Shown here in pieces: positions 3,445 to 41,560 of a stretch of DNA of 64,000 nt. The stretch comes from a virus. The first letter of the stretch is position 1, and each line of letters starts with the position of its first letter. The translations under genes were made by a program, and so were the position numbers. The notes beneath the pieces are model-generated. The model saw nothing but the letters and a program-made list of their open reading frames with translations, did no database searches and was not told the DNA's origin. The stretch spans positions 1 through 64,000 of IMG/VR virus record IMGVR_UViG_3300037851_000547; one strand, 5' to 3'.

Positions 3445-3645
3445 CTACATGATAGAAAATATCGGCAACACTACGACAGCTCCCTGGTCACGGACATCCA
3501 AGCAAAAGCTGGACACGCGGAACCTGCCGCCACACTGGTCGATGTACAGTCGTCCGTTGATGAGCCGATAGACAGTAGGCCACCACGACCCATCTGACCT
3601 ACCAGTGCGGCAGGTGTTGCATTTCGTCGTCTTACTTCCACTCAT
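3445..3645 (-). CDS. hypothetical small Cys-containing protein
   Basis: 66-aa ORF that fills the gap between the ParB-like gene and the next gene. 14-nt overlap with the ParB-like stop. Confidence 0.3.
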   Translation of the reverse strand: MSGSKTTKCNTCRTGRSDGSWWPTVYRLINGRLYIDQCGGRFRVSSFCLDVRDQGAVVVLPIFSIM

Positions 3646-4510
3646 CGGCCATCATGGCTTTCAGGCCCTTGACGACGGAAGGCCCGATTTCGCCCATCGC
3701 GAACTTGATTCCCTTGATGAACATCGGGTCGAGCCGCTCGTCCTCGACCAGCTCGTCGTTGCGTTTCAGAAGCCTCTTCAGAACCTTCTTGCCGGGTGCC
3801 TTCACGATGTTCTCGTTCTCCCCGAACATTCCATCGCTCTTGTGTCTCTTCACAGCAGCCCTCACGTCGCCGATCGTGGCCTTGCCTTCCGCGATGAGCT
3901 TGTCGGCTTGAGCTTTCTGCTCCTCGCGAGGAAGGTCAGACAGGTTGGCTGCAGCAGAAGCCGACATCTTGCCATCCTCGACGAGCTTCTGAACGGGAGC
4001 GACCAGATCTAAGAGCTTCAGATAGAGCTTCAGTCCGTTGAGTGTAACGCCGAAAATCTTCGCCGCGTCCTCCTCGCCGTTGCCGAGATCGATGTACCGC
4101 TGCACCTTTCGGGCCTTGGCCATCGGGCCGTCGTTCTCCCGCAGCTCGTTCTCCGAAACCATCATGCCGAAGGACTTGCTGTCGTCGGCGCGCTCGACGG
4201 TGGCTGGAACCCTGATGATTTCTCTTCCCTCCTTTCGCAGCTCCTCGTTGAGCGCTCTGGCGGCTTTGACGCGCCGGCGACCCTGGATGACCTCGGCCTT
4301 CTCTCCGTTCTTGCGGACGGATATGGACACCAGGATCTTCCCCAGCGCCTTGATGTTGGCGACGAGCTTTTGGTCAACCGGCTCGGTCGCCCTCTTGTCC
4401 CAGAGCGGGTGCTCCGGGCCGTCGTCGGTGTCGAGCCCGATGATCACCAGATCGTCAGGATCGAACAGGTACAGGTTGCTCCTCTTTGCGTCGAACGCAT
4501 TCTTTGCCAT
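3632..4510 (-). CDS. ParB N-terminal-domain (ParB/sulfiredoxin-like) DNA-binding protein
   Basis: 292-aa ORF. VSISVRKNGEKAEVIQGRRRVKAARAL matches the ParB GxRR box region. Helical C-terminal half. Confidence 0.7.
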   Translation of the reverse strand: MAKNAFDAKRSNLYLFDPDDLVIIGLDTDDGPEHPLWDKRATEPVDQKLVANIKALGKILVSISVRKNGEKAEVIQGRRRVKAARALNEELRKEGREIIRVPATVERADDSKSFGMMVSENELRENDGPMAKARKVQRYIDLGNGEEDAAKIFGVTLNGLKLYLKLLDLVAPVQKLVEDGKMSASAAANLSDLPREEQKAQADKLIAEGKATIGDVRAAVKRHKSDGMFGENENIVKAPGKKVLKRLLKRNDELVEDERLDPMFIKGIKFAMGEIGPSVVKGLKAMMADEWK

Positions 4511-7463: not shown

Positions 7464-8546
7464 TTAGTCGCTGTCTGCGTCGAACATCTCGTCTCTGAAA
7501 TCCACGTTTTCCGGCAACGCAGCCATCTTCTCAGCCGCATCTCGAACCTTAGATATCGTCGCGCAAATCTGCTTGTGCGAGCAGCGAGCATCGCTGCAGC
7601 CGATTTGCGTCAGGTGCTTCAGGCAGTACGGCCTGAAGTCGCAGTTGTCGCAGGCCATACCGAATACCGGAGGATAGCCGATCTCCTCGAATGGCTTGAT
7701 GAGCCTGGACAGCTGGTACATCTGCTCGATCGCGCCGTCGATGTCGAAGAACTCGCGATCGTAGTGCCAGTACATGAACTGCTCGTGCTCCTTGTCGGCC
7801 ATCTCGTCGTAGATGCGCTGCGCGAGCTCTGTCGGTGTCTCGTCCTTTGGTTCCGGGTTGTTCTTCGTCGGCTTGCCGGCTTTCTTCAGCTTGTGCCTGG
7901 GCTTGTTCGCCACGGCCAGAACGAACTTCTTGGCTTCCGGGATGCCCTTGAAATACGTGGCGGCCTGCCTGATGACCTTCAGCTCATCGTAGGTGCTCAT
8001 CGCGTACTTCCACTCGATGATCGTCTCGCGGTCCTTCGTCAGCCGGTCGATGTACCCCAGAAAGTAGGCGTCCTTGTACGGGATGCCAACGCGGACCTCG
8101 GCCATCAGCGGACCCCAGTCCTTCTTCCATTCCTGGTACCGCCGCAGTACAGCGATGAGCTTCGCCTTGGCGACCGGAAACGAATCCAGCTCCTTCGGCA
8201 ACTCGCATGGGATGCCGAGATCGATCTTCGCCGAGCAGTCGCTGAACGCACGACCCACCACCTTCCACTGAGCGGGGATCGGCGGCTCGACATGGTAGAC
8301 GTAGTTGAAGGCGTACTTGCGCGGACACTGCATGATCGTGCTGATCCGCGAAGCGCTTGTCGGCGTCATCGTGCCGATGAGAGCTTTGTTTTCTTCTTGC
8401 TGCTTGTGAAGCAGTAGCTCGCACCTGAAGTACTCCGGTCGCTTGCAGATTCCATCGTCGTTGTAGAATCGGCATTTGACCTTTCCGTCATCCATCTGGA
8501 CTGGGCGGAAGTCTCCGCAGATTTTCTTCGCGAGCGCTTTGTCCAT
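7464..8546 (-). CDS. PD-(D/E)XK nuclease, Cas4/RecB-like exonuclease with C-terminal Cys cluster
   Basis: GYIDRL...IIEWKY (D..ExK) motif, C-terminal CDNCDFRPYC plus an N-terminal Cys. ATG at 8546 overlaps the upstream TGA (TGATG). Confidence 0.75.
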   Translation of the reverse strand: MDKALAKKICGDFRPVQMDDGKVKCRFYNDDGICKRPEYFRCELLLHKQQEENKALIGTMTPTSASRISTIMQCPRKYAFNYVYHVEPPIPAQWKVVGRAFSDCSAKIDLGIPCELPKELDSFPVAKAKLIAVLRRYQEWKKDWGPLMAEVRVGIPYKDAYFLGYIDRLTKDRETIIEWKYAMSTYDELKVIRQAATYFKGIPEAKKFVLAVANKPRHKLKKAGKPTKNNPEPKDETPTELAQRIYDEMADKEHEQFMYWHYDREFFDIDGAIEQMYQLSRLIKPFEEIGYPPVFGMACDNCDFRPYCLKHLTQIGCSDARCSHKQICATISKVRDAAEKMAALPENVDFRDEMFDADSD

Positions 8547-8881
8547 CACGATCCTTTCCGAAGTTGCTTGTTGAGCCTGCACATGGCGCATCGCGCCAGA
8601 AGAAGCTTCAGGCTCTCCTCCCGGTTAACCGTGCCGTCACGATCTCGTTCTGGAAGATGCGACAGATCTGGCTGCTCATAAGGAGAGCCGTGCTGGTGTC
8701 CGCGTTCGAGAAGCTCCTTCGCCAGCTCGTCGTGACGAGCCTTCATCGCTTTTGGTTCGATCTGACCATAGCGACCAGATATGGAGTGGCCCCTCTCGAA
8801 AACGTGGCGGTGCTTGTGGATCTCTCCGTGTTCGCCAAGCAGGTGCCTGGTACACACATGATTGAAGGATCTACCATCCAC
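8546..8881 (-). CDS. possible T4 endonuclease V-like pyrimidine-dimer DNA glycosylase
   Basis: 111-aa ORF (GTG start). CTRHLLGEHGEIHKHRHVF and ELAKELLERGHQH...DLSHLPE parallel the T4 DenV stretches DQHLMAEYRELPRVF and IELIAECLKRGFNI...DISDIPQ. By-eye similarity only. Confidence 0.45.
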   Translation of the reverse strand: MDGRSFNHVCTRHLLGEHGEIHKHRHVFERGHSISGRYGQIEPKAMKARHDELAKELLERGHQHGSPYEQPDLSHLPERDRDGTVNREESLKLLLARCAMCRLNKQLRKGS

Positions 8882-8884
8882 ATT

Positions 8885-8927
8885 CGCATAAAGAACGAAG
8901 CCGGTTCTATTTTACGACGGAACCGGC
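8885..8927 (-). terminator. hairpin plus U-rich tail (terminator- or attenuator-like)
   Basis: The minus-strand RNA reads GCCGGUUC-12 nt-GAACCGGC followed by UUCGUUCUUUAU, directly after the 9032..9367 gene. Confidence 0.35.
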
Positions 8928-9031
8928 AAGCGTCATGAAACGGAGGAAACTTCCGTACCCACCATGAGAAACGGAAACCGTTTGCAAGGCGCTACTGACG
9001 ATTGTTCAATCGCCAGGGATCACTTGGAGCG

Positions 9032-9463: not shown

Positions 9464-10219
9464 CTACATGGTGCGAACGCATATGAAACCATAGATATCA
9501 CTCTTTGGTTTGAACGAATCGATATCTTTGTCCACGTCCACGATTATCGCCGAAGCGCCATCTTCGGTGGATGACCAGAGAGTGCCGTTCAGCGGAGAAT
9601 CTACGATGGTAAGAAGTTCCTCGGCAGATGGAAGACGCCAGTCCTGGTAGACGCTGTTGTCAGCAAGTTCGCACCAGTTCACAGCTTCCTGCCAGTTCCC
9701 GAGAGTGTACCCCCACCAGACAAGGCATGTCTGGTCATCGAGGATCATCGTAGCCAGGCAATTATCCGAGTACTTGTATCGTCCTGCGGTTGACCGGAAC
9801 GTGCATCCTCCGCTCTGGAGCGGGCATCCAACGGCCGCGTCCTGGCCTTCATTTGACCCGCTGTCGGCCTCGAGGCCGCTGTCCTGGCTTGCGTCCTGGC
9901 CGGCATCGGACGCGCCTTCCAGGCCCGCGTCGAGGCCGCTGTCGGCTGTTTTTCCTGCATCGGCGACCTGTTCCCCCGCGTCGAGCTGCTCGATGTCGCC
10001 TCCGTCTGGATTGACCAGTGGACCGCTGTCGGGATCTACCGATCCTCCGCTCCCTCCTGATTCTCCGGTTCCACCGATTCCAGTCCAGGTGGAACCGGAA
10101 CCAGCTTCGTTCACCAGCGCGTCGCGGTCGGCGAAGCTGTAGTCGTCGAAGTCCGAGATCAGACTACAGCCTCCCATTCCGAGCGCCAGTACTATCGCCA
10201 GGTATCTGACTTTCCTCAT
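9464..10219 (-). CDS. secreted lipoprotein with C-terminal DUF1566 (Lcl-like) domain
   Basis: ATG at 10219 follows GGAGGAAACC. Lipobox LALGMGGCS, Gly/Ser/Asp-rich linker, and WRLPSAEELLTIV typical of DUF1566. Confidence 0.65.
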   Translation of the reverse strand: MRKVRYLAIVLALGMGGCSLISDFDDYSFADRDALVNEAGSGSTWTGIGGTGESGGSGGSVDPDSGPLVNPDGGDIEQLDAGEQVADAGKTADSGLDAGLEGASDAGQDASQDSGLEADSGSNEGQDAAVGCPLQSGGCTFRSTAGRYKYSDNCLATMILDDQTCLVWWGYTLGNWQEAVNWCELADNSVYQDWRLPSAEELLTIVDSPLNGTLWSSTEDGASAIIVDVDKDIDSFKPKSDIYGFICVRTM

Positions 10220-13343: not shown

Positions 13344-13807
13344 TGTTCCATCTTCAGCAACTCTCCGTTGCGAACCTCCATATTGATATCCTCGAGCACG
13401 TCGCCTTCCCGGAGAACATGGTGAACGAGCTTCCCATCTGGGTTGATCACTCGACCAGCCGAGAAGCCAAACACGCCAATCCACTCCTCGTCTCCAGTGA
13501 CCTTTACCACCTGCGGCACTCCGAGATTGCCGGTAACAATCATCAGCATACCAGGCCAGCCATACGGATTGGCCGCAACGCAGGCTGGACAGGTTGGCCG
13601 GTCATCTGGGCGATGCCAGCGCCACACAGCGCGGTTGTATGCCGGATCATCTTCGCAGGTAGAATACCAATGACCGCAAAGCGTCCTGGTTCTCAGACCC
13701 ACGAACAAGCGTCCCTGTTTCGTGAACGTGTAGCTGTGAACGTGAACAGAATCCTCGTGCGCGTGAACGAGTGCCTGTTCAGCGGTCATCACCTTGGCTC
13801 TTGCCAT
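13340..13807 (-). CDS. hypothetical protein
   Basis: 155-aa ORF containing a CPAC motif. Confidence 0.5.
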   Translation of the reverse strand: MARAKVMTAEQALVHAHEDSVHVHSYTFTKQGRLFVGLRTRTLCGHWYSTCEDDPAYNRAVWRWHRPDDRPTCPACVAANPYGWPGMLMIVTGNLGVPQVVKVTGDEEWIGVFGFSAGRVINPDGKLVHHVLREGDVLEDINMEVRNGELLKMEQ

Positions 13808-13808
13808 T

Positions 13809-13988
13809 TTACGTTCCCTCCGAAATGCGAAGTTGCTGTTCGCAACGATAGCTGAAGCTCTCGAATGGTCTGAGAATGGTCAGCAAAGCCTGCTCGCAGC
13901 GTCCTGCCAAATACCAAAGCCTGCGCACGAGCATCCTTCTACCTCGCGCATCGAGCGGCAAAGCTTCGATTTCACTGGTGTTTTTCAT
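13809..13988 (-). CDS. hypothetical small basic protein
   Basis: ATG at 13988 follows GGGTGGGAGC. 59 aa. Confidence 0.3.
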   Translation of the reverse strand: MKNTSEIEALPLDARGRRMLVRRLWYLAGRCEQALLTILRPFESFSYRCEQQLRISEGT

Positions 13989-18432: not shown

Positions 18433-18493
18433 CTCGATCCCTCCATTCTATCGACTAGCCTGTCTAGCCGATAAAAATGCCACTGTCGGTTGT

Positions 18494-19372
18494 TCATTTC
18501 GAAGGCAAGCCCTTCAATCTTCTCGGGTTACGAATCGCCTGGGCCACCTTCGAGTTGTAGACGAAGTAGTACGCCACGAGCAATCCTTCCGCCTCGTTGT
18601 GATTCGGCAGCTCGTCGCCGTGAAGCCATCGCCGCGCCACGCAGCTATTGATCGCCGTCGTCTTCGCCTGCTCACGGTTGTACCGCCCGCGACGAAGAGA
18701 AAGAACACTCGAGCGCCACTCATCGTCGGTGACGCTGAAAATTCGCGATTTCGGAAATCCCTTCTCCTCGAGCACGTCCTCCCACCGTCCCCAGGAAGCC
18801 CCCAGGCCGATGATCACCTTGAACGAGCGCTCGTCGCGCTTCCAGCCTGGGTGCCAGGTCTCCCGGCCGATGACGAGCGGCTTTCCGCGTGTCACCGCAG
18901 CTTCCCTGGCCAGATCGTAGGCGTAGCTGCGATCGACATGCGTGAGCGCTACACCGGAGTCGATGTACTGCTCCTTGTGGATGATCCCCCAGCCAGATTC
19001 CTTGCCGCTGTCGATTCCTAAAATGATGCAGTCGTTGGCTTCCATTATCGATCCGCAGTATTCTTCGAAAACAGTTCTGAGCTTTATGAGTGCAACTACG
19101 GGGTCTGAAGAAGCGACCGCCCTACTCTGGTTCACGTTGAAGAAGACTTTGGCGTACCAGAAGTACGTTTCCTCTTCTGTAATCCTAGCGTGCAGGCTCA
19201 CATCGCACGGTTCAAGCGAGCCAGAGGTTTTCAGAACGTCAGCGTTCTTGTTTACCACCTCGGCCAGCTTTTTCGCCTCCATCAGTATCTGCTCGTTCAG
19301 CGTCGGAAGCTTGCGTTGCTTTTTTCTCGCTGTCCGAGTCGGCGTCTTGCGCTTCTTTTTCTTTGCCGCCAT
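18494..19372 (-). CDS. RuvC-like (RNase H-fold) Holliday-junction resolvase with basic N-terminal extension
   Basis: ILGIDSGKESGWGII, VIGRE and NHNEAEGLLVAYYF parallel the RuvC catalytic motifs. Start uncertain. Confidence 0.5.
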   Translation of the reverse strand: MAAKKKKRKTPTRTARKKQRKLPTLNEQILMEAKKLAEVVNKNADVLKTSGSLEPCDVSLHARITEEETYFWYAKVFFNVNQSRAVASSDPVVALIKLRTVFEEYCGSIMEANDCIILGIDSGKESGWGIIHKEQYIDSGVALTHVDRSYAYDLAREAAVTRGKPLVIGRETWHPGWKRDERSFKVIIGLGASWGRWEDVLEEKGFPKSRIFSVTDDEWRSSVLSLRRGRYNREQAKTTAINSCVARRWLHGDELPNHNEAEGLLVAYYFVYNSKVAQAIRNPRRLKGLPSK

Positions 19373-20225: not shown

Positions 20226-20503
20226 GGCCTCACTACCCTGGCTTTGTCCCTGACGTGCTCCCAGACTCTGAGAGGAGCTTTCTCCCTGATGACAGTCATC
20301 AGGAAATACGGTCTCCCGTTCTGATCGATCGTCAATGCGAAGTAGCGCTTTTCCTTGTCGCGGAACAAGGACAGCTCCTCGTCCGTCGCCTCGCGCATCC
20401 AGTCCACGCCTTCGTTTTCGGCGACACCTTCTGCTCCAACGAGCAGCGTCACGGATTCTTCTGACATCAGGCCTCCTCTATTTCGTTTCCCCAAGAGTCC
20501 CAT
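20222..20503 (-). CDS. hypothetical protein
   Basis: 93-aa ORF. Confidence 0.45.
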   Translation of the reverse strand: MGLLGKRNRGGLMSEESVTLLVGAEGVAENEGVDWMREATDEELSLFRDKEKRYFALTIDQNGRPYFLMTVIREKAPLRVWEHVRDKARVVRP

Positions 20504-21080
20504 CCAGGCCGCCGCGACCTGGCAAAAATTTCGAGATACGGTCCTTTCGACACGGCCTCGATCTTCTCGTAGGAAGAATTCGGATTCTTGCTGTGCTTCC
20601 CCTCGGGCCGATGATGATGTTGTTCAGGTCTTTGCGGTCGGTGAAGACTTCTTGGTCCATGCCTTTTCCGCGAACGCCGAACAGCAGCAGCTCGCTGCAG
20701 CTTCGGAAGTACTTGCCGAGTCCTATCTTCAGGAAGTTATCGAAAAACTGCGCTGGTGTAAGCTCTGCCATCATTGCAATGTTGAAAGTGTTCATCGGAT
20801 CGAAAGCTTCGTTTTTCAGCTTGATCCATGGCAGCGTCCGAATGTACCGGAATCCTATGTCCTTCATGATTCCTATACCTTCCGGGAGATAGTTGTCCGT
20901 CACCCAGAAATACAGGTGAGCGTTGTCCGCTGGCCTGTACAGTAGACACTCGTACTGGATGACCTTCGGGATATCTTCGACAGAAAGAAGCTGATAGTGC
21001 CGATCGGCACCCCGCTTGATCTTCCCGCCTCCACGCTCAGGCCAGGGTGGGTCGATGAGGATCGTGTTGTATTTCTTCAT
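20478..21080 (-). CDS. MT-A70-family N6-adenine DNA methyltransferase
   Basis: ATG at 21080 gives an ATGA overlap with the upstream stop. Contains ILIDPPWPE (DPPW catalytic motif). Confidence 0.8.
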   Translation of the reverse strand: MKKYNTILIDPPWPERGGGKIKRGADRHYQLLSVEDIPKVIQYECLLYRPADNAHLYFWVTDNYLPEGIGIMKDIGFRYIRTLPWIKLKNEAFDPMNTFNIAMMAELTPAQFFDNFLKIGLGKYFRSCSELLLFGVRGKGMDQEVFTDRKDLNNIIIGPRGSTARIRILPTRRSRPCRKDRISKFLPGRGGLDGTLGETK

Positions 21081-23918: not shown

Positions 23919-24857
23919 TCAGTTCTCCCTGTCATGTGGCTCGGCATATTCCAGGCCCAGAATCTCGTACAGATCATGCTCGTCTGTACCGCCGATCCTG
24001 ATATCGCCCCGAAAGATGCCGTACTCGTTCACCTTCAATCCTACGGCTTTCGCAATGGCCCGAAGTCTCTCGTTGTGCATCTTCGAACCAGTGAAATAGT
24101 TGAGTGCAGAGCCCCAGCAGTCGATGTCCACCACCAGGAAGTCCACATCGATCGAGAACTTTTCGCCTACGTGCCTGAATCGAATCTTCGTTTCGCCTGC
24201 CGATTCGAGCGTTCCGTACCGCTCGGCAACGCTTCTGGCTTCTTCGACAGCCAGATCTTTCCATCCAGCGTCCGCGCCGATCAGAACGTCGAGATCCTTC
24301 ACGGTCAGGCGCCGCCTTCGCCACGATCCAGCTACTTCTACCCTGTCGATGTGCGGACACTCGCCCAGGGCGAAAACCAGTCGCTCCACAAGCGAGGCTA
24401 CAGCGAACCTGGACAACCTGCCCTGCTTTTTCCTGGCGAGCCCATCCAGAATCCTGTTGTACAGTTCGGAATCTTCCAATCCGGAGTCTTCCAGAACGAA
24501 TAGCAACTCGTCCATAGTCGTGACGCCCCAGCGCGCAGCCAGCTGCTCCGCTTTCACCGGGCCGATCCCTGGCATGAAGGTGAAATCGAGCGCCGCATCG
24601 GGAAACTCGGCTTCAAGCCGCTCCAGCTTTGTACTGGTCCCGGTAGCGCACAGGTCTTGAATTACCGAATCGATTGCCTGGCCAATCCCTTCGATGGCCA
24701 GCAAGTCCAGCTCCATGACGTGCTCGGGCAGATCCTCGACGATCTTGGATGCGTCGAGGAATGCCCTGGCACGCCAGCGATCCTTCTTGAGCTGATATAG
24801 CTGGCCGATCCGAAGCAGCTTCTGGGCAACCTCGGTATTCGACAGCTTTCCTATCAT
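23919..24857 (-). CDS. polX: family X DNA polymerase (Pol beta-like)
   Basis: Helix-hairpin-helix regions (IEGIGQAI, MPGIGPVKAEQL), AGSWRRRRLTVKDLDVLI, IDVDFLVV, YFTGSKMHNERLR, and C-terminal ILGLEYAEPHDRE. ATG at 24857 overlaps the HNH stop (ATGA). Confidence 0.9.
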   Translation of the reverse strand: MIGKLSNTEVAQKLLRIGQLYQLKKDRWRARAFLDASKIVEDLPEHVMELDLLAIEGIGQAIDSVIQDLCATGTSTKLERLEAEFPDAALDFTFMPGIGPVKAEQLAARWGVTTMDELLFVLEDSGLEDSELYNRILDGLARKKQGRLSRFAVASLVERLVFALGECPHIDRVEVAGSWRRRRLTVKDLDVLIGADAGWKDLAVEEARSVAERYGTLESAGETKIRFRHVGEKFSIDVDFLVVDIDCWGSALNYFTGSKMHNERLRAIAKAVGLKVNEYGIFRGDIRIGGTDEHDLYEILGLEYAEPHDREN

Positions 24858-26823: not shown

Positions 26824-27189
26824 CTAAAATCCACCTCTCTCGTCCCTGTCGGCGCAGGCATCGCACTGGTATCCGTGAGCGACATCTGCATCCGTCAGAG
26901 CGTTCGCCTTCCCGCATGAAGGGCACGGGTGCGTCCGCTCTCCCGGATGAAGGGCGCTGCGACCGCCGGGATCTCGGAAGCGCCTTCTCATGTACGCTTC
27001 CTCGTCATCGAAATCGTCTTCCCCACCACCATCTCCAGGGTCGTAATCTCCGCACCAGGTCTCGTGCGGCTCGTCCTCGGTGGCTCCACATTCTTCGCAA
27101 CAACCGCAGTCGCTGCAACCATGATGCGGGCAGACGAGTCTCCCCTGCTGCTCCGCGTCGAACATCGCATCTTCCTTCGAGTACGGCAT
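26824..27189 (-). CDS. hypothetical Cys-rich acidic protein (multiple CxxC)
   Basis: The ATG at 27189 lies 1 nt after the upstream stop. Contains CPHHGCSDCGCCEECG and CPSCG...CDAC. Confidence 0.5.
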   Translation of the reverse strand: MPYSKEDAMFDAEQQGRLVCPHHGCSDCGCCEECGATEDEPHETWCGDYDPGDGGGEDDFDDEEAYMRRRFRDPGGRSALHPGERTHPCPSCGKANALTDADVAHGYQCDACADRDERGGF

Positions 27190-27190
27190 G

Positions 27191-27556
27191 CTACATCTCC
27201 ACGCCGTCAATGAAGGTCCGACACCCGCCGGAAGCCGCTATCTTCAGTGGAATGACCTCGGCGAGCGTCGGTTTCTCCGTCCTGGAGACCAGCTTCTCGA
27301 GCTTCCGGATTGATCCGGCATCGAGCTGGCCCTCGATCTCTACCTCGTCGATGTCCAGCTCGACTCCGATGCTGTCGAGGTACTTTTCGAGCTTTCGCAT
27401 GTCGCCCATCAGTACCCCGGCCTGCCTGGATTCGCTCGCGGACAGGAACTCGGAAAGAACTTCCGGCAACGCCGCGAGCGCGTCCTGCCGCCGCCAGAAC
27501 AGATTGATGTTCTGTTCCTCTTCGTTGGCTACCATCACAGCAATTATCTCGAACAT
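27191..27556 (-). CDS. hypothetical acidic protein
   Basis: 121-aa ORF. Confidence 0.5.
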   Translation of the reverse strand: MFEIIAVMVANEEEQNINLFWRRQDALAALPEVLSEFLSASESRQAGVLMGDMRKLEKYLDSIGVELDIDEVEIEGQLDAGSIRKLEKLVSRTEKPTLAEVIPLKIAASGGCRTFIDGVEM

Positions 27557-27628
27557 GGTTCTCTTCCTCCGTTTGTCGGTCGAAGTGACCGGCCTGCCGC
27601 CCGGTAGGCGGCAGACCCGTTACTTCGT

Positions 27629-27826
27629 CTACTTGACCACTTTATCTGTCTCAGAATCGACTTCAGCGACAACCCTGAAAACCTCGGGGAAAAATCCTTC
27701 GTAGTAATCTGTCACTGCGTAAACCTCACCGAGCCTGGCGATTGCCATGTACGAAGCTTTCTGTCCTTGCTTCGTTCCGTCCTCGAGCCAGTGATTGCCC
27801 TTTTCGTCGAGTACATGCCTCACCAT
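27629..27826 (-). CDS. hypothetical small protein
   Basis: ATG at 27826 follows GGAGGAAATC. 65 aa. Confidence 0.4.
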   Translation of the reverse strand: MVRHVLDEKGNHWLEDGTKQGQKASYMAIARLGEVYAVTDYYEGFFPEVFRVVAEVDSETDKVVK

Positions 27827-27850
27827 GATTTCCTCCGTTTTCCTGTGCGG

Positions 27851-27899
27851 TTTGCACAAGCCAGGGCGCGAACCGAAGCTCGCGCCCTGAAGGTGCAAA
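27851..27899 (-). promoter_or_regulatory. 12-bp stem / UUCG tetraloop hairpin (motif copy B) inside a 7-bp outer stem
   Basis: The minus-strand RNA reads CAGGGCGCGAGC-UUCG-GUUCGCGCCCUG (27862-27889), flanked by TTTGCAC/GTGCAAA. It lies about 36 nt upstream of the 27826 start. Confidence 0.7.
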
Positions 27900-28037
27900 C
27901 GCTACGGAAGACCATGTTCACCAAGTTATCAAAGAGCGAAACCCCGACACTTGCCGCATTGAGGCAGGTACGGGGGTTTGTAGGTCAAGGAACCGTTACG
28001 ATGGTTTCTGACCGTCGTACATTTTCCAGGCTATCCC

Positions 28038-28073
28038 AGAAAGGGAAAACCCCAGGCGGTTTCCCGCCTGGGG
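28038..28073 (-). terminator. rho-independent terminator
   Basis: The minus-strand RNA reads CCCCAGGCGG-GAAA-CCGCCUGGGG followed by UUUUCCCUUUCU, 18 nt after the 28091 stop. Confidence 0.7.
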
Positions 28074-28090
28074 TTCCCAGGTAGCGATGT

Positions 28091-28600
28091 CTACTCGACC
28101 ACCTTACCGTCCACCAGCCAGAACTTCCGGCCGTTGACAGCGGTATCGGACCCCTGCACGAGCTTCGCCGCCTCCGTGTACGACCTGCACTCCCGGTTGC
28201 CGTCCAGAACGTAGACCCGTTCCTCGCGACGAACTAGCTCGTGCTGCTCGCCCTTGTAGGTGCGGAAAGCCGTTGCGCCGACAGGCATCTCGTCGTTTAC
28301 GATAGTGCCCTTCCCGGTCGAGACTCCGCTACCCGTGCCAGCGGACTTCACCTTGATTCCGGAGCGATAGGACCGCTCGGAGATGTGTCCGTTCTCGTCG
28401 ATGCCGAAGGAGACGGTGCAGGCCTCGGGCGGAATGATCCCCTCGAGCTTCCCGACCAGCTCGGTCAGGTACGCCTTTTTCGACTCCGTGAGTTGCTCGT
28501 CTACCGCCTTCTTCTTCTCCATCGCTGCAGCGAGCAGCTTCTGGAGATCGGTAGGGGACAACCCTTCGAGCATCGCAAGCAGGTTCTGATTGTCTGACAT
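28091..28600 (-). CDS. hypothetical protein (N-terminal coiled coil, small C-terminal domain); first gene leftward of the divergent region
   Basis: 169-aa ORF with a GGAGG-type RBS. The C-terminal SYTEAAKLVQGSDTAVNGRKFW faintly resembles small DNA-binding domains. Confidence 0.55.
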   Translation of the reverse strand: MSDNQNLLAMLEGLSPTDLQKLLAAAMEKKKAVDEQLTESKKAYLTELVGKLEGIIPPEACTVSFGIDENGHISERSYRSGIKVKSAGTGSGVSTGKGTIVNDEMPVGATAFRTYKGEQHELVRREERVYVLDGNRECRSYTEAAKLVQGSDTAVNGRKFWLVDGKVVE

Positions 28601-28738
28601 AGTTTCCTCCGTTAGGTGGCGAACCTATGCCAGGTATTCCTGCCTGGTCACCAGTGCCAGGCATGGAACAAGCCTGACACGGGTTTTCCACATTTTCATA
28701 GAACGCCGGGATTTTCCCGGTTTCACATACTACTGGCC

Positions 28739-28945
28739 ATTGTACAGTAGGCCGTTTGGTTTTTTTCATTGCGCCTATTGAACGCCTTTTGCACGAAGTA
28801 GGCCTGGCGTACTGGACGCGCAAGGTGCGCGGTCTGGCCATTGTACAGTGTGTAGTCCTTGTACGCTTTGCGCTTGTTACGCGCGCTCTGCCGATTGTAC
28901 AGTCGCCGCCTGGCGTGCAAGGCGCGGTACTGTCCATTGTACAGT
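28739..28945 (+). repeat. Four direct copies of ATTGTACAGT (iteron- or operator-like)
   Basis: Copies at 28739-28748, 28840-28849, 28894-28903 and 28936-28945. Copies 2 and 4 share a longer CCTGGCGT...CAAGG.GCGCGGT..TG.CCATTGTACAGT unit. Confidence 0.8.
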
Positions 28946-29130
28946 TTGCGGGTTTTTGGCCAGTCGTACTGCATTGCCTGGGCCAAATTCCGGTCAACCG
29001 GCCTGGCGTTCCTGGCACGCCTACCGCCAATTGCGCCAATCTGGCCCGAAATCGCCCGGATTCGCCTCGCGATACCGTTCCTGGACCAGAAGTGGCTTCC
29101 TGAACCTAAACCGGGCCAGAAACGCCCTCA

Positions 29131-29715
29131 GTGGCCACGATCTGGCCGATTCTGGACCCGTTGCTACCGTTCACGGACAGAGTTACCCTGAATTTCATGC
29201 AGACACTCGAATCGATCCGCAGGTTTCATCGTGAACACCACTCGATCGTCTGCGGACCAGGCCATGCGCTCTCCAGAAGCGCGACAACGATCCGCGAATA
29301 CTACGACAAACAGCCTTTTCCAGCCTTCTTCGTGGTCCGCCTGGCTCGAACGAACCCTCACGAAGTCTACAAAATGCTCGTTCATGCTCTCGGCCGGATG
29401 CCAGCCAATGGACTACGCGACGATCTGCTCCTGGCCAGAGCCGCCTTGCTCGACCCGGATACCGACGAGTCAGAGCTGCAGCGCCACTACGAGATCATGA
29501 ACGCTCCCGAAAAGCCTGCGCGCCCGCATCAGTACTACCGCCTGGTCTACTACATGCTGAAGTGGCACCTCGGCATCGCTCCAGACACAAACCTGATCGC
29601 CGTCCAGGAAAAGATGCAGGAACAACTCCGAAGCTTCGGGGTTCCTGACCATAAAAACGTGCTTCTGTCGTGGTTCAAAGAAGGGATGCCGTTCGAGAAG
29701 TGGGTGAACCTCTAG
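29131..29715 (+). CDS. hypothetical protein (plus-strand gene divergent from the leftward operon)
   Basis: 194-aa ORF (GTG at 29131; alternative ATG at 29197). Its stop overlaps the convergent minus-strand gene. Confidence 0.5.
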   Translation: MATIWPILDPLLPFTDRVTLNFMQTLESIRRFHREHHSIVCGPGHALSRSATTIREYYDKQPFPAFFVVRLARTNPHEVYKMLVHALGRMPANGLRDDLLLARAALLDPDTDESELQRHYEIMNAPEKPARPHQYYRLVYYMLKWHLGIAPDTNLIAVQEKMQEQLRSFGVPDHKNVLLSWFKEGMPFEKWVNL

Positions 29716-30074
29716 TATCCGGAGTACCCGCCCTCCTCTTCGTCATCATCGTCTTCGAGCTCTATCTTCCCCTGGCTGCTCTGTATGGTCTCGCCGGTCG
29801 TGTCGATCACACCCTGCGCTCCCGGATTCTTCAGCGATCGCTGCAGTTGAGCAAAGATCACCCCGGAAACTTCTGACTTTGACAGTCCGCGGCTTCTGGC
29901 GAGTCCTTCGGACAGCCGGTCGATCACGTCCGCGAGAAGCGTTCCCCAGGTTGACACGTCCTCCCACGTCTTCATCCTGGCGATGCACTCGAGCTTTCCA
30001 TCCACGATCCAGCAGCTCAAAATCTCGGCGCTCTTTCCGCGCCAACCATTCGGCTTCGGAAGTTCCTTGTCCAT
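29712..30074 (-). CDS. DUF5076-like protein
   Basis: EILSCWIVDGKLECIARMKTWEDVSTWGTLLADVIDRL resembles the DUF5076 pattern as I recall it. Asp/Glu tail. Confidence 0.45.
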   Translation of the reverse strand: MDKELPKPNGWRGKSAEILSCWIVDGKLECIARMKTWEDVSTWGTLLADVIDRLSEGLARSRGLSKSEVSGVIFAQLQRSLKNPGAQGVIDTTGETIQSSQGKIELEDDDDEEEGGYSGY

Positions 30075-30083
30075 CTTTCTCCT

Positions 30084-30296
30084 CTACTTGTCAGCTCGTG
30101 CTCTGAACTCTTTCACGGCCTCGTCGGCCCTCTCTCTGGCCATCGCAGCAACGGAGTCACCGATCTTTTTCGCCGGACGCTCCCACGGAAACTCCGTGTA
30201 TCCTTTGTCCTTCTCATGACCCCGTGAGAATACCTGAAGCCGGTCGAATTCGGAAGCGTACACGCTCGCCCACAGTTTCTGCTCGATCTCGTTCAT
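30084..30296 (-). CDS. hypothetical protein
   Basis: 70-aa ORF, ATGA overlap with the upstream gene. Confidence 0.4.
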   Translation of the reverse strand: MNEIEQKLWASVYASEFDRLQVFSRGHEKDKGYTEFPWERPAKKIGDSVAAMARERADEAVKEFRARADK

Positions 30297-31186
30297 GGCC
30301 TCTCCAGATGATCAGGAAACTCGTTCCAGACCTTGCCGTCCAGAATAGGAGCTTCTACGACACGATCGTTGAACGACGACTCAGGACTCTGCTTGAAATA
30401 GAAAGGAATGTCGAAGCCGTTCCTCTTGCATTGATCTCTGACGTGGCGAGCCCACTGGTAGTCGAAGCTCCTTCCCTGCCGACCGTTCACCTTCTCGCAG
30501 CCGACAATGATCCAGTCGAGACCCGTCTTCGACAGGTGCGACGATTTGGGCCACGGCAGCAATGGAAATCGAAGCTCGATATCTTCCAGCATCGGCTCCA
30601 TCGAGACGCCGTGAACGACGGCCGGAATCTCGAACAGCCTTGCCACTCTCTTGTCGTACATTTCCTGGTTCTCTGCCGATACCAAGATCCACACGTTGCG
30701 AAGCGGCCATGTCTTCGTTGGCGCGAATCGCGGAAGCGACTTGATGCGATGCCACGCCTGCTCGGCGCAGAAGTCGCGGATCGTCTCCGCGTGCTTCAGG
30801 TCGTCCACTTCTCCTTCGAGCCACCGGAAGAACGCTTCCGCGTGCGCAGGCCGCTTTGTGAGGATCTGAAACGTGTGCTGCTCGCAGTACGCCATGACTC
30901 CGAACACCGCGGCGAGAAATCGGTAGTAGTCGTAATCGCCGTATGGATAGAACAGGTCGCTCATGCTATCCACGAACACCATGCTCGGCTTCGACCAGTG
31001 AAGAGGCATGTTCAACCTGTTCGTGTGAACCGTGAAGCGAAACGGCTCTGCTCTTGGGTACCCGTACCGGCCTTTCAGCCGGTGCGCCATCTTCCTGGCA
31101 TAGCAGTTGTCGCAACCAGGAGAGATCGGCTTGCAGCCGGTCGTCGGGTTCCAGACCCTATCAGTCCACGGGATCTTTGTCTTCAT
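30293..31186 (-). CDS. phage Gp37/Gp68-family protein (DUF5131)
   Basis: The N-terminus IPWTDRVWNPTTGCKPISPGCDNCYA is the signature of this family. Confidence 0.8.
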   Translation of the reverse strand: MKTKIPWTDRVWNPTTGCKPISPGCDNCYARKMAHRLKGRYGYPRAEPFRFTVHTNRLNMPLHWSKPSMVFVDSMSDLFYPYGDYDYYRFLAAVFGVMAYCEQHTFQILTKRPAHAEAFFRWLEGEVDDLKHAETIRDFCAEQAWHRIKSLPRFAPTKTWPLRNVWILVSAENQEMYDKRVARLFEIPAVVHGVSMEPMLEDIELRFPLLPWPKSSHLSKTGLDWIIVGCEKVNGRQGRSFDYQWARHVRDQCKRNGFDIPFYFKQSPESSFNDRVVEAPILDGKVWNEFPDHLERP

Positions 31187-32263: not shown

Positions 32264-33206
32264 GAGATGCGCTCCATTGTAACCCGAAATAGTCGAAGGC
32301 TATACGAGCTGCCCTTTCCCGTAGATCGGGAACGCTCGACAGAGAAGCTGGCGGCACGAGTGGATCGAAGAACAGCTTCAATCCCTGGTAGATGAACTCT
32401 CGTACTGGAGATCCGAATCCACGACCACTTTTCAGCGCCATCATCAGCGCGTATTCGCAGACTTTGGCCGTGGCATCGTTGAGCCTGTCCGCGACATCTG
32501 CCCGTGAGTTGTCGTCGCTGAACAGGTGCGATATTCCCCAGATTTCAGCGGAGAAACTGAAATCGACCTTCACCTGTATCGACGCGCCATCCGTTCGCTC
32601 GGAAAGTCCCCGAAGCGCCTTCTCGAACGACTCTACGCAGGCTGGAAAGTCATCGAAAGATCGAAGTGAAGACCACAGCTTTCCAGCACCAGTAGCGAGC
32701 GTATCGAGCGTGGTGTGGATCTCATCCAGCCGATCGCGGGTTTCCGACAGCGTTTCCTCCATCGCCTCGAAACGGTAGTCGCGAATCAGCTCGCTCACCT
32801 CTATCAGTTTCGATCCAACCGTCTTGCCCAGGTCTCGCATCTCCTTGATGCCATCGGGGATCTGCTGCTCCTGCTTCGACAGGATTCCGTCCAGCAGCTC
32901 GACGGCATTCAGCTCCGAGGTCAGCTGTCCGGTCTTTTCCTGGATGCGCTGCATCAGCTTGTCGAGCACTTCCTGGTGAAAGACGCGCGGCATCGGCTGC
33001 CAATCTCCAGCGTTCTGAAAAGGCCCATCGGCAACACTTGGACACGTCAGCGGTGTCACCGGTGGATCTGGTTGATCCTCGACTCCAGTTACCGTCGCCT
33101 TGTCGAGTTCGCGCTGGAACGTCGATTGCCGCTCGGCAGGTATGATTCTCTTCACTTCTCTGACGAGCAATTCAAGTACATTATCTATTCTTCGCAACTC
33201 TGACAC
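32244..33206 (-). CDS. hypothetical helical protein
   Basis: 320-aa ORF. GTG start preceded by AAAGGAGGAACCA. Confidence 0.55.
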   Translation of the reverse strand: MSELRRIDNVLELLVREVKRIIPAERQSTFQRELDKATVTGVEDQPDPPVTPLTCPSVADGPFQNAGDWQPMPRVFHQEVLDKLMQRIQEKTGQLTSELNAVELLDGILSKQEQQIPDGIKEMRDLGKTVGSKLIEVSELIRDYRFEAMEETLSETRDRLDEIHTTLDTLATGAGKLWSSLRSFDDFPACVESFEKALRGLSERTDGASIQVKVDFSFSAEIWGISHLFSDDNSRADVADRLNDATAKVCEYALMMALKSGRGFGSPVREFIYQGLKLFFDPLVPPASLSSVPDLRERAARIAFDYFGLQWSASHGNKVA

Positions 33207-33229
33207 TGGTTCCTCCTTTATGGATAGAC

Positions 33230-33284
33230 GGCGACCCGAAGCCGCTCAGCGGGGGGGTACCGAGCATGGGGCTTCTGGGTCGCC
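33230..33284 (-). other. 55-nt rod-like hairpin abutting the tRNA 3' end (acceptor-stem-like GGCGACC/GGTCGCC closing pairs, C7 run in the loop)
   Basis: Read directly. GGCGACC..GAAGC...GCTTC.GGTCGCC gives 7+5 bp with one bulge. Confidence 0.6.
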
Positions 33285-33359
33285 GGTAGCGACGGTGGGA
33301 GTTGAACCCACTACCTCCGGAGTATGAGACCGGTGTGCAACCACCTACACTTCGTCGCA
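33285..33359 (-). tRNA. tRNA with CAU anticodon (Met, or Ile2 if lysidine-modified)
   Basis: Manual cloverleaf. The acceptor is GCGACG/CGTCGC with a U1-U72 mismatch. The D stem is GUGU/GCAC. The anticodon stem CCGG(U)/(U)CCGG carries the loop CUCAUAC. The T arm is GUGGG-UUCAACU-CCCAC. The discriminator is A followed by CC. A8 is atypical. Confidence 0.7.
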
Positions 33360-33372
33360 ATATTCGACTACT

Positions 33373-33744
33373 TTACCATGTGTAGTGCGAACCGCCACAG
33401 TTACCGGAAACGAACTTCCGATAGGTGACCTTCACCAGCAGTCGTTCTCTGCCGTCTTCCCCCTGAATGGTAATGAATGGCTTTGCCGTCTTTCCGTTCC
33501 ACAGGACTTCGCCGACAGAGCTGACGAGCTGCATGAGCGAATCGTGAAGCTGCTTGCTCACCGGAACCGACTTCGGGAACAGCACCGTACAGCGGATTTT
33601 CTCCTGCGACGGCCAGTTCCTTCGTTCACGAATGGGAAGATCCCCTACCGCCTGCCAGGCGCGCTCCCGGCAAGAATCCAGGTAGAATTTCAGCCGCTCT
33701 GCATCGACCGGCGGCAGCGGTAGGGGAAACTCCAGATCTGCCAC
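33373..33744 (-). CDS. hypothetical protein (start uncertain)
   Basis: The C-terminal 123 aa of track ORF 33373..34143. The upstream part overlaps a better ORF in another frame. Candidate GTG at 33744. Confidence 0.4.
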   Translation of the reverse strand: MADLEFPLPLPPVDAERLKFYLDSCRERAWQAVGDLPIRERRNWPSQEKIRCTVLFPKSVPVSKQLHDSLMQLVSSVGEVLWNGKTAKPFITIQGEDGRERLLVKVTYRKFVSGNCGGSHYTW

Positions 33745-33764
33745 TACGAATCCGTCGCCGTCTT

Positions 33765-39195: not shown

Positions 39196-39739
39196 ACGGC
39201 TCCAGTTTCACATCAGAGTTACAGTCTGGACAGAAAAGTCTATGACCTCTTCGGATTCTACCGAGCATCTGTGGCGTGATGAAGTGCTTCCGGCACCGGC
39301 AATAGACGAGGTACTGCTTGCTGATGGTCGGAGCGGGCGTCTGCATCTGGGCTCTCGCGTCGGAGTAACCACATCGCCGCATAAGCTCCTTCCATTCCTC
39401 TCCGTGATCGTTGACCTTTTGTTTCCGTCGCCGGCAGAACCGCTCGAAAACGAACAGGTGGCAGGCCTCGTGAATGATGGCCTCTGTCTTCTCCTCGTCA
39501 TCGAGGTAGTTCCAGAGCTGCGCAGACAGCTCGATCGCGTCTGATGCGAAGGTCGCTCTCCCGACAATGGACGTGAAGCGGTAGTTCCAGGAGACATGGA
39601 TCTGCTTCGAGAACCTCTGCAAACCGCATTTGTCCCCAGCCCAAGTGAGCAACCCTCGCACCCGTTCGTCCGAAGATAGTTCCCACCCTCCCCTCCCATT
39701 CCGGGGATAGAGTGGGGGGGGGAAGGTACAGCGTTCCAT
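39185..39739 (-). CDS. SprT-like zinc metallopeptidase with C-terminal zinc ribbon
   Basis: IIHEACHLFVFE (HExxH), HGEEWKELM, and CRC...CPDC. The start is uncertain: 39793, 39739 or GTG 39661. The two upstream options place the palindrome left arm inside the ORF. Confidence 0.65.
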   Translation of the reverse strand: MERCTFPPPLYPRNGRGGWELSSDERVRGLLTWAGDKCGLQRFSKQIHVSWNYRFTSIVGRATFASDAIELSAQLWNYLDDEEKTEAIIHEACHLFVFERFCRRRKQKVNDHGEEWKELMRRCGYSDARAQMQTPAPTISKQYLVYCRCRKHFITPQMLGRIRRGHRLFCPDCNSDVKLEPYAE

Positions 39740-39858
39740 TCTTGCCAAAGCTGTCTCCTGAGTCCGTACATCGCAGTTCATGCCACTGTCCATTGTTCAT
39801 TCCGTAGTTGCCGATCCCCCCCCACTCTATCCCCGGAATGGGCTGGTGGGAGGGTGGG
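39682..39858. repeat. Interrupted palindrome copy 2: C-rich G4 complement, CCATTCCGGGGATAGAGT+G9, 93-nt spacer, C8+ACTCTATCCCCGGAATGG, then GGGCTGGTGGGAGGGTGGG
   Basis: Read directly. The arms at 39696-39722 and 39816-39842 are near-identical to copy 1. The outer flanks are CCCACCCTCCCCTCC and GGTGGGAGGGTGGG. It lies in the divergent gap between the SprT-like and SLT genes. Confidence 0.85.
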
Positions 39859-39897
39859 ATCGTTGTGGGTCGGGAGCACCGATGGTAGGGTTGAGGG

Positions 39898-40499: not shown

Positions 40500-40724
40500 T
40501 TACCGGCTTGTGTAGTACTCTTCATCGCTGAATACCTCTCCCTTTCTGACTCTGTTCCAGTTCACTCCGTTGTACACGCTGGTTCCGAATCCAAAGACGA
40601 GTAGACCGATTCTCGCGATCGGATGCAAGCCCTCTCCCTTCCACCCGCCGTACATCATCATCGGGCCGATCACGAAGACATCTGCCAGCCGTACCCCCTG
40701 CGCTTTCGAACGACGCCGCTTCAT
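40500..40724 (-). CDS. small membrane protein
   Basis: 74 aa with two hydrophobic helices. Confidence 0.45.
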   Translation of the reverse strand: MKRRRSKAQGVRLADVFVIGPMMMYGGWKGEGLHPIARIGLLVFGFGTSVYNGVNWNRVRKGEVFSDEEYYTSR

Positions 40725-41560
40725 CGCTTTCGGTTTATTTTACCGAATCGCTTGGTGATTACAAGCTGCCTCTCGCGGACGTTCTTTCCACCCTTGTTCA
40801 CCTTTGCCACGATGTAGCGGCACTTCCAGCCCTTCTTGTTGCAGAAGATCTTCCGCAGGCGAGGGTGGTTGTTGATGATGATGAAGACGTAGCCTTTCAT
40901 CCCATCGCAGACCTTCTTCAGGTGCTCGGGATCGAAAGCGGTCCCCTTCTTCTTCATGCCCCTGTGCTTCTTGATGCGGGCCTTCGTTCCGCCGTGATAG
41001 AAGCTATCGGAGTACTCCAGAAGCCAGGGTGGGTCGAGAAAGTGTACCGTCTTGTCGCCGTCGAACTTTCGCATGGTCGCCGCGAAGTCTCCAAGACGCA
41101 GGTACGCCTTGCGAAGCTTCTTCCGGTAGAGCTCGTGCTTACGCAGCCTGTTTCGGAGGAGGATCTTCCCAGCCGTGTTCTGGTCCCCGGTGTAGGTCGC
41201 GCGGTCGCCGTGCCAGCTCAAGGCGGACAGGGCGATCTTCCGACACACGCCGTTCTGGTTCTTCAGTACCCGCTTGAACAGGCTTCTGGATTTTCGGACA
41301 CCTCCCGCACATTTCCTGAGCCCTCCGTTCCTGGTGCTCTTGTACAGGTCCACCAGCCACGGGTCCATGTCGCCGATCACATTCCTCTTTACCAGAGGCT
41401 TCCTGAAAAACAGTGCCGCGCCACCGGCGAAAGGCTCCACGTAGGTATCGTGAGGTGGAAGCATCTTCACGAACCGCTTCGCCATGTGACGCTTGCCACC
41501 AGGCCACTTGATCAGCGGCTCGAGCGAAAGCTGCTTCTGTGTTCCGCGTGCCATTGCCAT
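40721..41560 (-). CDS. dam: Dam-type (D12 class) N6-adenine DNA methyltransferase
   Basis: IKWPGGKRHM, VEPFAGGAALFF (motif I) and HFLDPPW (motif IV). Confidence 0.9.
   Translation of the reverse strand: MAMARGTQKQLSLEPLIKWPGGKRHMAKRFVKMLPPHDTYVEPFAGGAALFFRKPLVKRNVIGDMDPWLVDLYKSTRNGGLRKCAGGVRKSRSLFKRVLKNQNGVCRKIALSALSWHGDRATYTGDQNTAGKILLRNRLRKHELYRKKLRKAYLRLGDFAATMRKFDGDKTVHFLDPPWLLEYSDSFYHGGTKARIKKHRGMKKKGTAFDPEHLKKVCDGMKGYVFIIINNHPRLRKIFCNKKGWKCRYIVAKVNKGGKNVRERQLVITKRFGKINRKR

Follow-up and report, generated by a model that had tools for sequence, protein, structure and literature searches.

A strand-specific repeat at the heads of gene blocks in an uncultured phage, a candidate clade-specific promoter

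The M1 array and the control region of the 169-aa gene

The window analysed here is a 64,000-nucleotide (nt) stretch of DNA, positions 1 to 64,000 of the IMG/VR virus record IMGVR_UViG_3300037851_000547. It is part of an uncultured phage whose source contig measures 80,211 bp, and nearly all its genes lie on the minus strand. Between the leftward orphan gene 28091-28600, coding a protein of 169 amino acids (aa), and a conserved gene of the opposite strand extends the largest gene-free stretch of the window according to our gene calls (28601-29196), which is the control region of the 169-aa gene. It holds a tandem array of a short element, M1, a candidate clade-specific promoter of which single copies are also found in front of other leftward gene blocks (Table 1).

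A first-pass annotation of the sequence had listed four same-orientation copies of ATTGTACAGT in this region. They are found exactly at 28739, 28840, 28894 and 28936 of the plus strand and nowhere else in the window; when one mismatch is allowed there are 6 matches against 1.27 expected, a number reached in 0 of 100 shuffles. Two further repeats that it reported are equally exact. The 12-mer ACTGTCCATTGT occurs at 28929 and 39785, the latter position falling between the arms, 94 nt apart, of a perfect 27-nt inverted repeat at the second strand switch, and copies 2 and 4 lie within longer repeats (28801-28849 and 28907-28945) that align with a single 10-nt indel. The core of the copies is exact while their flanks are only 63-81% identical, suggesting that selection acts on the core and that the array does not result from recent duplication. 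On the minus strand, which is the coding strand, M1 is ACTGTACAATGGMCAGTA, an asymmetric unit of 16-18 nt whose copies read ACTGTACAATGG(A/C)CAG(T/A)(A/G/C). The palindrome TGTACA, proposed as the core of the repeat, is present in the ATTGTACAGT copies and is not the conserved feature of the element, the dispersed copies having TGAACA. A fifth, degenerate M1 is found 36 nt after copy 3 and 18 nt before copy 2, giving array spacings of 42, 36, 18 and 101 nt.

Alignment of the plus-strand gene product with two homologues places its start at ATG 29197 and not at GTG 29131. The region, initially delimited as 530 bp, thus measures 596 bp and keeps its rank as the largest stretch devoid of genes. 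Codon-usage scoring and a start-aware gene call revealed no convincing gene in it, and an independent gene call on a Logan contig with identical DNA left it empty, in agreement with the original view that it is non-coding. The repeats could alternatively encode a small basic protein with LYNGQ repeats, the product of the 87-aa minus-strand open reading frame (ORF) 28723-28986: copies 4, 3 and 2 share one frame (42 + 54 nt), where they read LYNGQ, LYNRQ and LYNGQ, and the codon score is slightly positive (+4.9). This reading is hardly credible. No ribosome-binding site precedes the ORF, copy 1 is out of frame, the corresponding frame in the related contig L011 is TAG TAC AAT CGA CAG TAG, the longest stop-free stretch on the coding strand of relatives with lower GC content spans 25-47 aa, and the Logan contig call found no such gene. 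Frame, stops and the missing ribosome-binding site refute the ORF as a gene to a reasonable standard.

The cassette has the order distal M1 cluster (three good copies and the degenerate one), A-run, proximal M1, structured leader of ~130 nt, strong ribosome-binding site, gene, terminator and M1. The terminator is composed of CCCCAGGCGG-GAAA-CCGCCTGGGG followed by UUUUCCCUUUCU (-42 kcal/mol, z-score -5.7). This strong terminator and the M1 copy that comes after it imply that the 169-aa gene is a monocistronic, insulated unit headed by the M1 array, while the next operon starts with its own M1.

Table 1. Position of M1 copies and of features of the 169-aa gene cassette in the window.
Feature	Position	Strand	Sequence	Remarks
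M1 copy 4 (distal cluster)	28928-28945	-	ACTGTACAATGGACAGTA	31 bits; aligns with L011 copy
M1 copy 3	28886-28903	-	ACTGTACAATCGGCAGAG	motif search and matrix scan
M1 fifth copy, degenerate	28850-28867	-		GTACAAG core at 28858-28864 (cttgtac on + strand)
M1 copy 2	28832-28849	-	ACTGTACAATGGCCAGAC	motif search and matrix scan
A7 run	28760-28766	-		directly upstream of proximal M1; A5-7 run at equivalent place in all relatives
M1 copy 1 (proximal)	28731-28748	-	ACTGTACAATGGCCAGTA	start 148 nt before ATG
Leader of 169-aa gene	28601-28730	-		hairpins 28706-28720 and ~28624-28668; ribosome-binding site GGAGG 28606-28610
169-aa orphan gene	28091-28600	-		family of 8 relatives; codon score
Intrinsic terminator after 169-aa gene	28036-28075	-		10-12 bp GC stem, then UUUUCCCUUUCU
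M1 copy	28006-28023	-	AATGTACGACGGTCAGAA	12.4 bits; ~22 nt after terminator of 169-aa gene
M1 copy	39784-39801	-	AATGAACAATGGACAGTG	21.7 bits; 36-45 nt before start of SprT-like gene
M1 copy	8993-9010	-	ATTGAACAATCGTCAGTA	18.2 bits; upstream of Pdg-like and exonuclease genes; orthologous L068 copy at 19650
M1 copy	18481-18498	-	AATGAACAACCGACAGTG	15.0 bits; 49 nt upstream of 373-aa gene
M1 weak copy	3533-3550	-	ACTGTACATCGACCAGTG	11.4 bits; downstream of ParB-HTH gene
M1 matrix hit	13798-13815	-		9.6 bits; overlaps gene end and ribosome-binding site; sole non-intergenic hit
M2 copies	28802-28809, 28908-28915, 29001-29008	-
M3 cluster (GGNCCARA)	28980-29158	both		adjoins opposite-strand gene; 5 of 11 window matches in 180 bp
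Conserved opposite-strand gene (172 aa from ATG)	29197-29715	+		36% and 26% identity to L073 and L077 counterparts; codon score

Distribution of M1 in the window

A position weight matrix built from the M1 copies was scanned over the 64 kb. It gave 13 hits above 9 bits against 1.7 in shuffles. The six hits that did not belong to the training set are all on the minus strand and five of them are intergenic, although intergenic DNA makes up only 8.7% of the window. At every M1 site the minus-strand score is far above the plus-strand score, and all copies point in the direction of transcription. When every intergenic gap was scored, six had M1, all within the first 40 kb, and the gaps of the structural module had none.

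The element had been described as shared by the two strand-switch regions. It is indeed a cis-element common to both, but it is not specific to them: M1 also precedes the gene blocks at 18432, ~8890, 27826 and 3428, the four corresponding intergenic sites not being divergent. Since it is dispersed at many gene-block starts, its presence in the two divergent regions is one instance of a general feature of leftward gene-block starts. M1 marks the start of at least six leftward gene blocks. At 8993-9018 the element overlaps a plus-strand hit and the two form a 22-bp palindrome, CTGACGATTGTTCAATCGCCAG, a symmetry unique among M1 sites.

Conservation of the layout in related phages

Homologous loci were found through the 373-aa, DUF5131 and 169-aa proteins. 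They belong to seven other uncultured phage lineages that display the layout in part or whole, six of which include the 169-aa gene. An exhaustive HMMER search yielded eight relatives of the 169-aa protein, none of which was found by a word-indexed protein search. Their loci (L073/L074, on contigs of 49-54 kb, L075/L076, L077/L078, L079 and L080) have each their own near-identical M1: TGTACTTTCGGCAGAT in L073, AGTGCAATTGGCAGTA in L075, AAGTCAAACGTGCAGCA in L077, the 23-mer GGATTGAAGCTTTGCCTTACAGG in L079 and ATTCCAGGTNNNGCAATAGA in L080.

The common layout consists of a distal M1 cluster, an A-run, a proximal M1, the gene and a terminator, with M1 after the terminator wherever the contig extends far enough. 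In the six control regions tabulated the distal cluster has 1-4 copies positioned 240-395 nt before the ATG, and the proximal M1, preceded by a run of A5-7, starts 124-158 nt before it. The last two M1 copies are 101 nt apart both in the window and in L077. Terminator hairpins equivalent to the one of the window are found in L068, L073, L075, L077, L079 and L080, and the order gene-terminator-M1 recurs in L068, L073, L075, L077 and L080. Conservation of repeat number and position among relatives, a point raised by the first-pass annotation, thus holds for layout and positions, while the M1 sequence is lineage-specific and the number of distal copies varies.

In L068 (61% identity, 41% GC) the M1 version GGAYAATRGCGAGTWAY occurs five times, always intergenic, co-oriented and at orthologous places. 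Two copies lie in the 640-bp region before the 169-aa homologue, one just after the terminator of that homologue, one 41 nt before the 373-aa homologue and one before the exonuclease block. The copy preceding the 373-aa homologue (9925-9975) is located in the loop and descending arm of a terminator-like hairpin with a 12-bp stem followed by a T-run, which resembles an overlapping terminator and restart arrangement.

The DUF5131 protein has its nearest relative (69% identity) on the 2.4-kb contig L011, whose non-coding tail can be aligned with the window minus strand (blastn, 72% identity, E 8.5e-4) and has GTACAAG/GTACAAT copies spaced by 39, 36 and 18 nt versus 42, 36 and 18 nt in the window, the 36/18 spacing around the degenerate copy being shared. 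L011 is the only relative with an HTH_3 gene directly upstream of the region. The 373-aa protein has many relatives, and the M1 that precedes its gene is kept at the equivalent place in L071/L072, L068 and L070; in L071/L072, which originate from samples shared with L011/L012, TAAGTACAACGGACAGTC is found 39 nt before the orthologous 375-aa gene. In IMG/VR relatives of the 373-aa protein that are more distant (31-48% identity), the 10 kb to either side lack the cassette and no motif recurs upstream, under conditions where the positive control L068 gave back its M1. No DNA similarity to the window was found among GenBank phages, where a protein-level search revealed only remote relatives for the 373-aa protein and none for the 169-aa protein. 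Neither the two flanking proteins nor an alignment of the 169-aa family matched anything in IMG/VR, and scans of viral, metagenome and genome collections for the array pattern returned only unrelated tandem repeats. Among these, three direct repeats of TTCTAAATGTGTACAATTTGTGTGACA are found in a separate group of phages (L016, L018, L020, L023-L025, L028 and others; IMG/VR 3300045988 contigs) and may be a promoter or operator array of that group.

M1 could also function in RNA, as a leader motif involved in processing or antitermination or as a translational operator. In favour of this, the element is intergenic and specific to one strand, a 5-bp hairpin closing a 7-nt loop can form in copy 4, and the region folds better than shuffles on both strands (z-scores -3.6 and -2.8). 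This role is very improbable: neither the other copies nor the relatives retain the hairpin, the changes are not compensatory, no consensus structure emerges across six leaders, and transcripts would seldom include a copy located immediately behind a terminator. The region has no Rfam match; between 27900 and 29300 the only hit is P15, on the terminator hairpin, with 25 bits against a gathering score of 70.

M1 as a candidate promoter

The interpretation that we favour, with a confidence slightly better than even, is that M1 is a clade-specific promoter or the binding site of the specificity factor of that promoter. Operator, iteron-type origin and small-ORF readings are weaker. The constant orientation of M1, its position at the heads of gene blocks, the terminator-then-M1 succession and the absence from the structural module fit a promoter class better than switch operators, iterons or parS sites. 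So does the near-identity over 16-23 bp within each genome combined with a version that differs between lineages. The sequence of M1 changes between related phages and the layout does not, which indicates that the protein recognising it is probably phage-encoded.

M1 would then be the core of a clade-specific promoter, or the docking site of a phage-encoded factor bringing RNA polymerase, and would start the leftward early and replication transcription units. Single copies would head four or five further gene blocks, including the second strand switch, and the post-terminator copy at 28006-28023 would restart transcription for the next operon. The tandem copies might provide additional starts or a higher occupancy, possibly leading to transcription-activated replication. 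The analysis shows the sequences with their positions and orientation, the terminator, and a layout conserved along with lineage-specific M1 versions; that transcription would start at M1, which candidate protein would recognise it and what the tandem copies would add are inferences from these.

Some other promoter type must exist in this genome, since the sigma-70 consensus, a TTGACA-like hexamer separated by 16-18 nt from a TATAAT-like one, is matched no more often than in shuffles over 60 kb (3 versus 6.4, 4 versus 6.9 and 5 versus 5.4 in 20-kb scans) and not at all in 28400-29400 or 27000-31000. Several points nevertheless weigh against a promoter function of M1. It is not an ordinary sigma-70 -10 element: a -10 hexamer with invariant A2 and T6 is not kept across M1 versions, TACAAT of the window corresponding to TGCAAT in L075, TACTTT/TACTAC in L073, TCAAAC in L077 and AACAAC in the window copy at 18498. 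The spacings of 18-54 nt in the array are too tight for several host polymerases side by side and suit better a small polymerase or a DNA-binding factor. No RNA polymerase or sigma factor was identified among the window proteins scanned, ~16 kb of the source contig being outside the window; there is no Pfam RNA_pol hit in the 64 kb, no DxDGD motif was found, and the 764-aa protein has no PDB relative. As all genes are on one strand, orientation relative to transcription is inseparable from orientation relative to the genome. Finally, the site of a regulator that always accompanies an unseen promoter would give an identical pattern.

Other known elements were compared with M1 and rejected. In an extended -10 element the TG would be off by one position, in a sigma-54 promoter the GG-to-GC spacing would be wrong, and the motif is CTGT-N7-ACAG rather than the CTGT-N8-ACAG of a LexA box. 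YefM-type TGTACA operators do not account for the TGAACA of the dispersed copies, and the geometry of M1 does not fit a MotA box.

M1 copies might instead be operators of a phage repressor or activator acting at several operon starts, the array exerting a cooperative, high-occupancy control of the 169-aa gene that may be autoregulated. In copy 4, 7 of 8 pairs are symmetric, which makes its 17 bp a near-palindrome (ACTGTCCATTGTACAGT); the 22-bp palindrome mentioned above includes the site at 8993-9018, and dimers that bind DNA would fit spacings of 18-54 nt. The region has a conserved orphan gene on either side, L011 has its HTH_3 gene directly upstream, and lineage-specific site versions are typical of a regulator that co-evolves with its site. 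We nonetheless judge operators unlikely. Symmetry is limited to 4-5 of 8 pairs in copies 2 and 3, is weak in copies 1-3 as a whole and is absent from the L068 and L077 versions; the one-sided strand score and the co-orientation of all copies do not suit such sites. M1 placed just after a terminator in five phages has the look of a restart promoter, and no separate promoter consensus is visible beside the sites. The products of the two flanking genes, previously suggested as binders, are conserved partners of the region and remain candidates, but no DNA-binding domain is recognisable in the 169-aa or 172-aa proteins.

The first-pass annotation had suggested that the repeats, as operators or iterons, could belong to a lysis-lysogeny or plasmid-maintenance switch. 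Such a switch is not supported: the copies have one orientation, their symmetry is not kept, and there is no integrase, repressor-type helix-turn-helix (HTH) or ParA among the ~70 window proteins scanned. Its suggestion of parS-like sites bound by the ParB-like protein is not supported either, as M1 is asymmetric, the ParB-HTH gene (3632-4510) is 24 kb from the array with one weak M1 just downstream, and ParA was not found. What the first reading retains is partial support, namely a real shared cis-element with conserved flanking partner genes.

Companion repeats, flanking proteins and a possible origin

Two other repeat families accompany M1. M2 is CGCCAGGC on the minus (coding) strand, a GCCAGGC-like sequence often found 2-5 nt upstream of an M1 copy; three of the seven GCCTGGCG of the window are in the region. 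Its sequence is conserved across the clade, unlike that of M1, with variants such as GCGCCAGGG (three copies in L073), GCTAGGCG and GTCAGGCG (L075 and L077), while its copy number goes from ~3 to 20. The largest arrays separate distal from proximal M1. In L068 (3556-3770) a 17-bp unit, GCGCTAGGCCCGCTAGG, is repeated ~7 times, the tandem GCTAGG units of this locus numbering ~20, and in L080 (~150-300) there are ~10 GCCAGGGA units where the window has 3 M2 copies. M2 does not correspond to Dcm (CCWGG) sites, as L068 uses CTAGG. M3, GGNCCAGA, is the third repeat family of the region and is also found in L073 (3490 and 3560), L077 (5428 and 5499) and L011 (2044 and 2113). M2 and M3 probably bind regulators, and the flanking 169-aa and 172-aa proteins are the obvious candidate binders.

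The array heads the replication module, with the block of ligase, PolX and helicase genes following directly downstream, and might be an origin of the iteron type, or of the type combining a promoter with an unwinding element, in which M1 and/or M2 bind an initiator. The primary origin of T7 is formed by two tandem phage promoters and an AT-rich stretch, and T4 oriF and oriG by a middle promoter and an unwinding element; by analogy with these, an origin could coexist with promoter activity of M1. The presence of at least three direct repeats of ~17-22 bp, the variation of the M2 family between phages and the adjacent A-run and GC-rich hairpins are in line with an origin. However, M1 is dispersed at five other operon starts, unlike iterons, its spacings in the array are irregular and not helically phased, and in a region of ~57% GC the sole AT-rich feature is the 7-nt A-run. 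Cumulative GC skew has no inflection there and no initiator gene was recognised in the window. We consider this function decidedly unlikely.

The 169-aa protein has no Pfam domain, and neither has the 194-aa protein; relatives of the former give sub-threshold Pfam hits to RAMA, DUF4357 and DUF2924 that serve as a lead only. A 9-sequence alignment allowed building a usable model (predicted local distance difference test, pLDDT, 77.5), the single-sequence model being poor (pLDDT 43). The predicted structure features a long amino-terminal helix, a beta hairpin, a disordered linker and a confident carboxyl-terminal beta/alpha domain. It has no significant fold match in the PDB or among viral folds, and a profile search against PDB sequences was also insignificant. 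The opposite-strand gene is kept in L073, L074 and L077.

A bolder proposal, speculative and unlikely in our judgement, is that the 169-aa or the 172-aa family, both without a known fold, is a new factor that is sigma-like or directs the polymerase, its DNA specificity drifting along with M1; the array of M1 and M2 would in addition be a transcription-activated origin or a nucleation site for the 169-aa protein. Linked to it is the possibility that M1 at 39784-39801 is part of an invertible promoter that switches between the two divergent genes. If M1 is a promoter class served by a phage-encoded factor, it would represent a new transcription-programming system in an uncultured clade of phages of ~50-80 kb or more that is seen in metagenomes only, and would provide a function for two orphan protein families. 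The lineage-specific M1 versions offer a natural table to compare with candidate proteins, and the insulated cassette of tandem elements, leader, gene and terminator could find use elsewhere as a compact module for gene expression. If nothing else, M1 defines transcription units in a genome with almost no protein of known function.

The second strand switch and other features of the window

The 27-nt inverted repeat of the second strand switch (39695-39721 and 39816-39842) is perfect and its spacer includes position 39785. An outer 12-nt inverted repeat also flanks the 94-bp segment (39681-39859). Within the segment are an M1 copy and, for the SprT-like gene, the ribosome-binding site and the likely start codon (TTG, 39748); the left arm of the 27-nt repeat is inside the SprT-like ORF. 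An invertible promoter lying between the divergent genes is one possibility, a cruciform another.

The segment 0-28.6 kb and the vicinity of 40.7 kb code for a helicase, an RNase T-type exonuclease, AAA_24, a PDDEXK-type exonuclease, an ATP-dependent ligase, two PolX-like proteins, RadC, methyltransferases of the MT-A70 and D12 classes and the ParB-HTH protein. Many small genes without assigned function, DUF5131, DUF5076, tRNA-Met and the SprT-like protein occupy 29.7-39.7 kb, while 40.5-64 kb codes for large proteins without assigned function and for proteins with peptidoglycan-binding domains. One of the two PolX-like genes, 1867-2538, matches the thumb domain only; the other is 23919-24857. 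The two DNA adenine methyltransferase genes are 20478-21080 and 40721-41560. A pyrimidine-dimer DNA glycosylase-like gene (8546-8890, minus strand; Pfam Pyr_excise, E 5e-5) has its amino-terminal residues apparently in another frame, the shift being within the TGTGTGT run at ~8851-8857, so that an apparent 485-bp gap is mostly coding; this may reflect a frameshift or a sequencing error. The second-largest gene-poor stretch (33198-33764, 567 bp) contains tRNA-Met (33285-33359, minus strand), the only Rfam match of the window, and ~400 bp without a confident gene; it has no M1.

Comparison with known systems

The domain order of the modelled 169-aa protein (helical amino terminus, linker, beta-rich carboxyl terminus) recalls the MotA protein of phage T4. 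T4 middle promoters, composed of a MotA box and a -10 element, and the origins oriF and oriG also have a phage-defined box, which sets apart a temporal class of promoters before replication genes, and no -35 element. However, the 169-aa protein matches neither MotA nor any PDB entry in fold or sequence, the distance from M1 to any -10-like hexamer does not fit, and M1 differs from one relative to the next, unlike the MotA box, which T4-like phages conserve.

M1 shares with lambda OL/OR a partly symmetric site of ~17 bp, tandem copies and presence at two strand-switch regions. Unlike the lambda operators, M1 sites are found also at non-divergent intergenic positions, have one orientation and do not conserve their symmetry; no repressor, Cro or integrase module was detected in the window. 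Iterons (lambda ori, P1 oriR/incA) and centromere arrays (F sopC, the dispersed sites of N15) are similarly made of non-coding direct repeats of ~17-20 bp, M2 copy number varies widely and a ParB-HTH protein is encoded. The irregular spacing of M1, its copies at operon starts and the lack of ParA or of a recognised initiator in the window distinguish it from both, and its repeats are not the 16-bp palindromes of the parS type.

A close parallel is provided by the T7 group, whose promoters are near-identical sequences of 17-23 bp recognised by a single-subunit RNA polymerase, with phi1.1A and phi1.1B in tandem at the primary origin. M1 likewise has near-identical copies of 16-23 bp in each genome, intergenic and co-oriented with genes of one strand, and lineage-specific as T7-like promoters are. 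It would form terminator-then-promoter pairs, keeps its positions while its sequence differs between related phages, and has a tandem cluster at the head of the replication region. It differs in that the sequences are unrelated, no T7-like RNA polymerase (Pfam RNA_pol) is found in the window, and the array consists of 4-5 copies spaced by 18-54 nt, with a second repeat family in between. Phage-specific promoter or regulatory repeats are a known kind of element, found here in a conserved tandem-array cassette.

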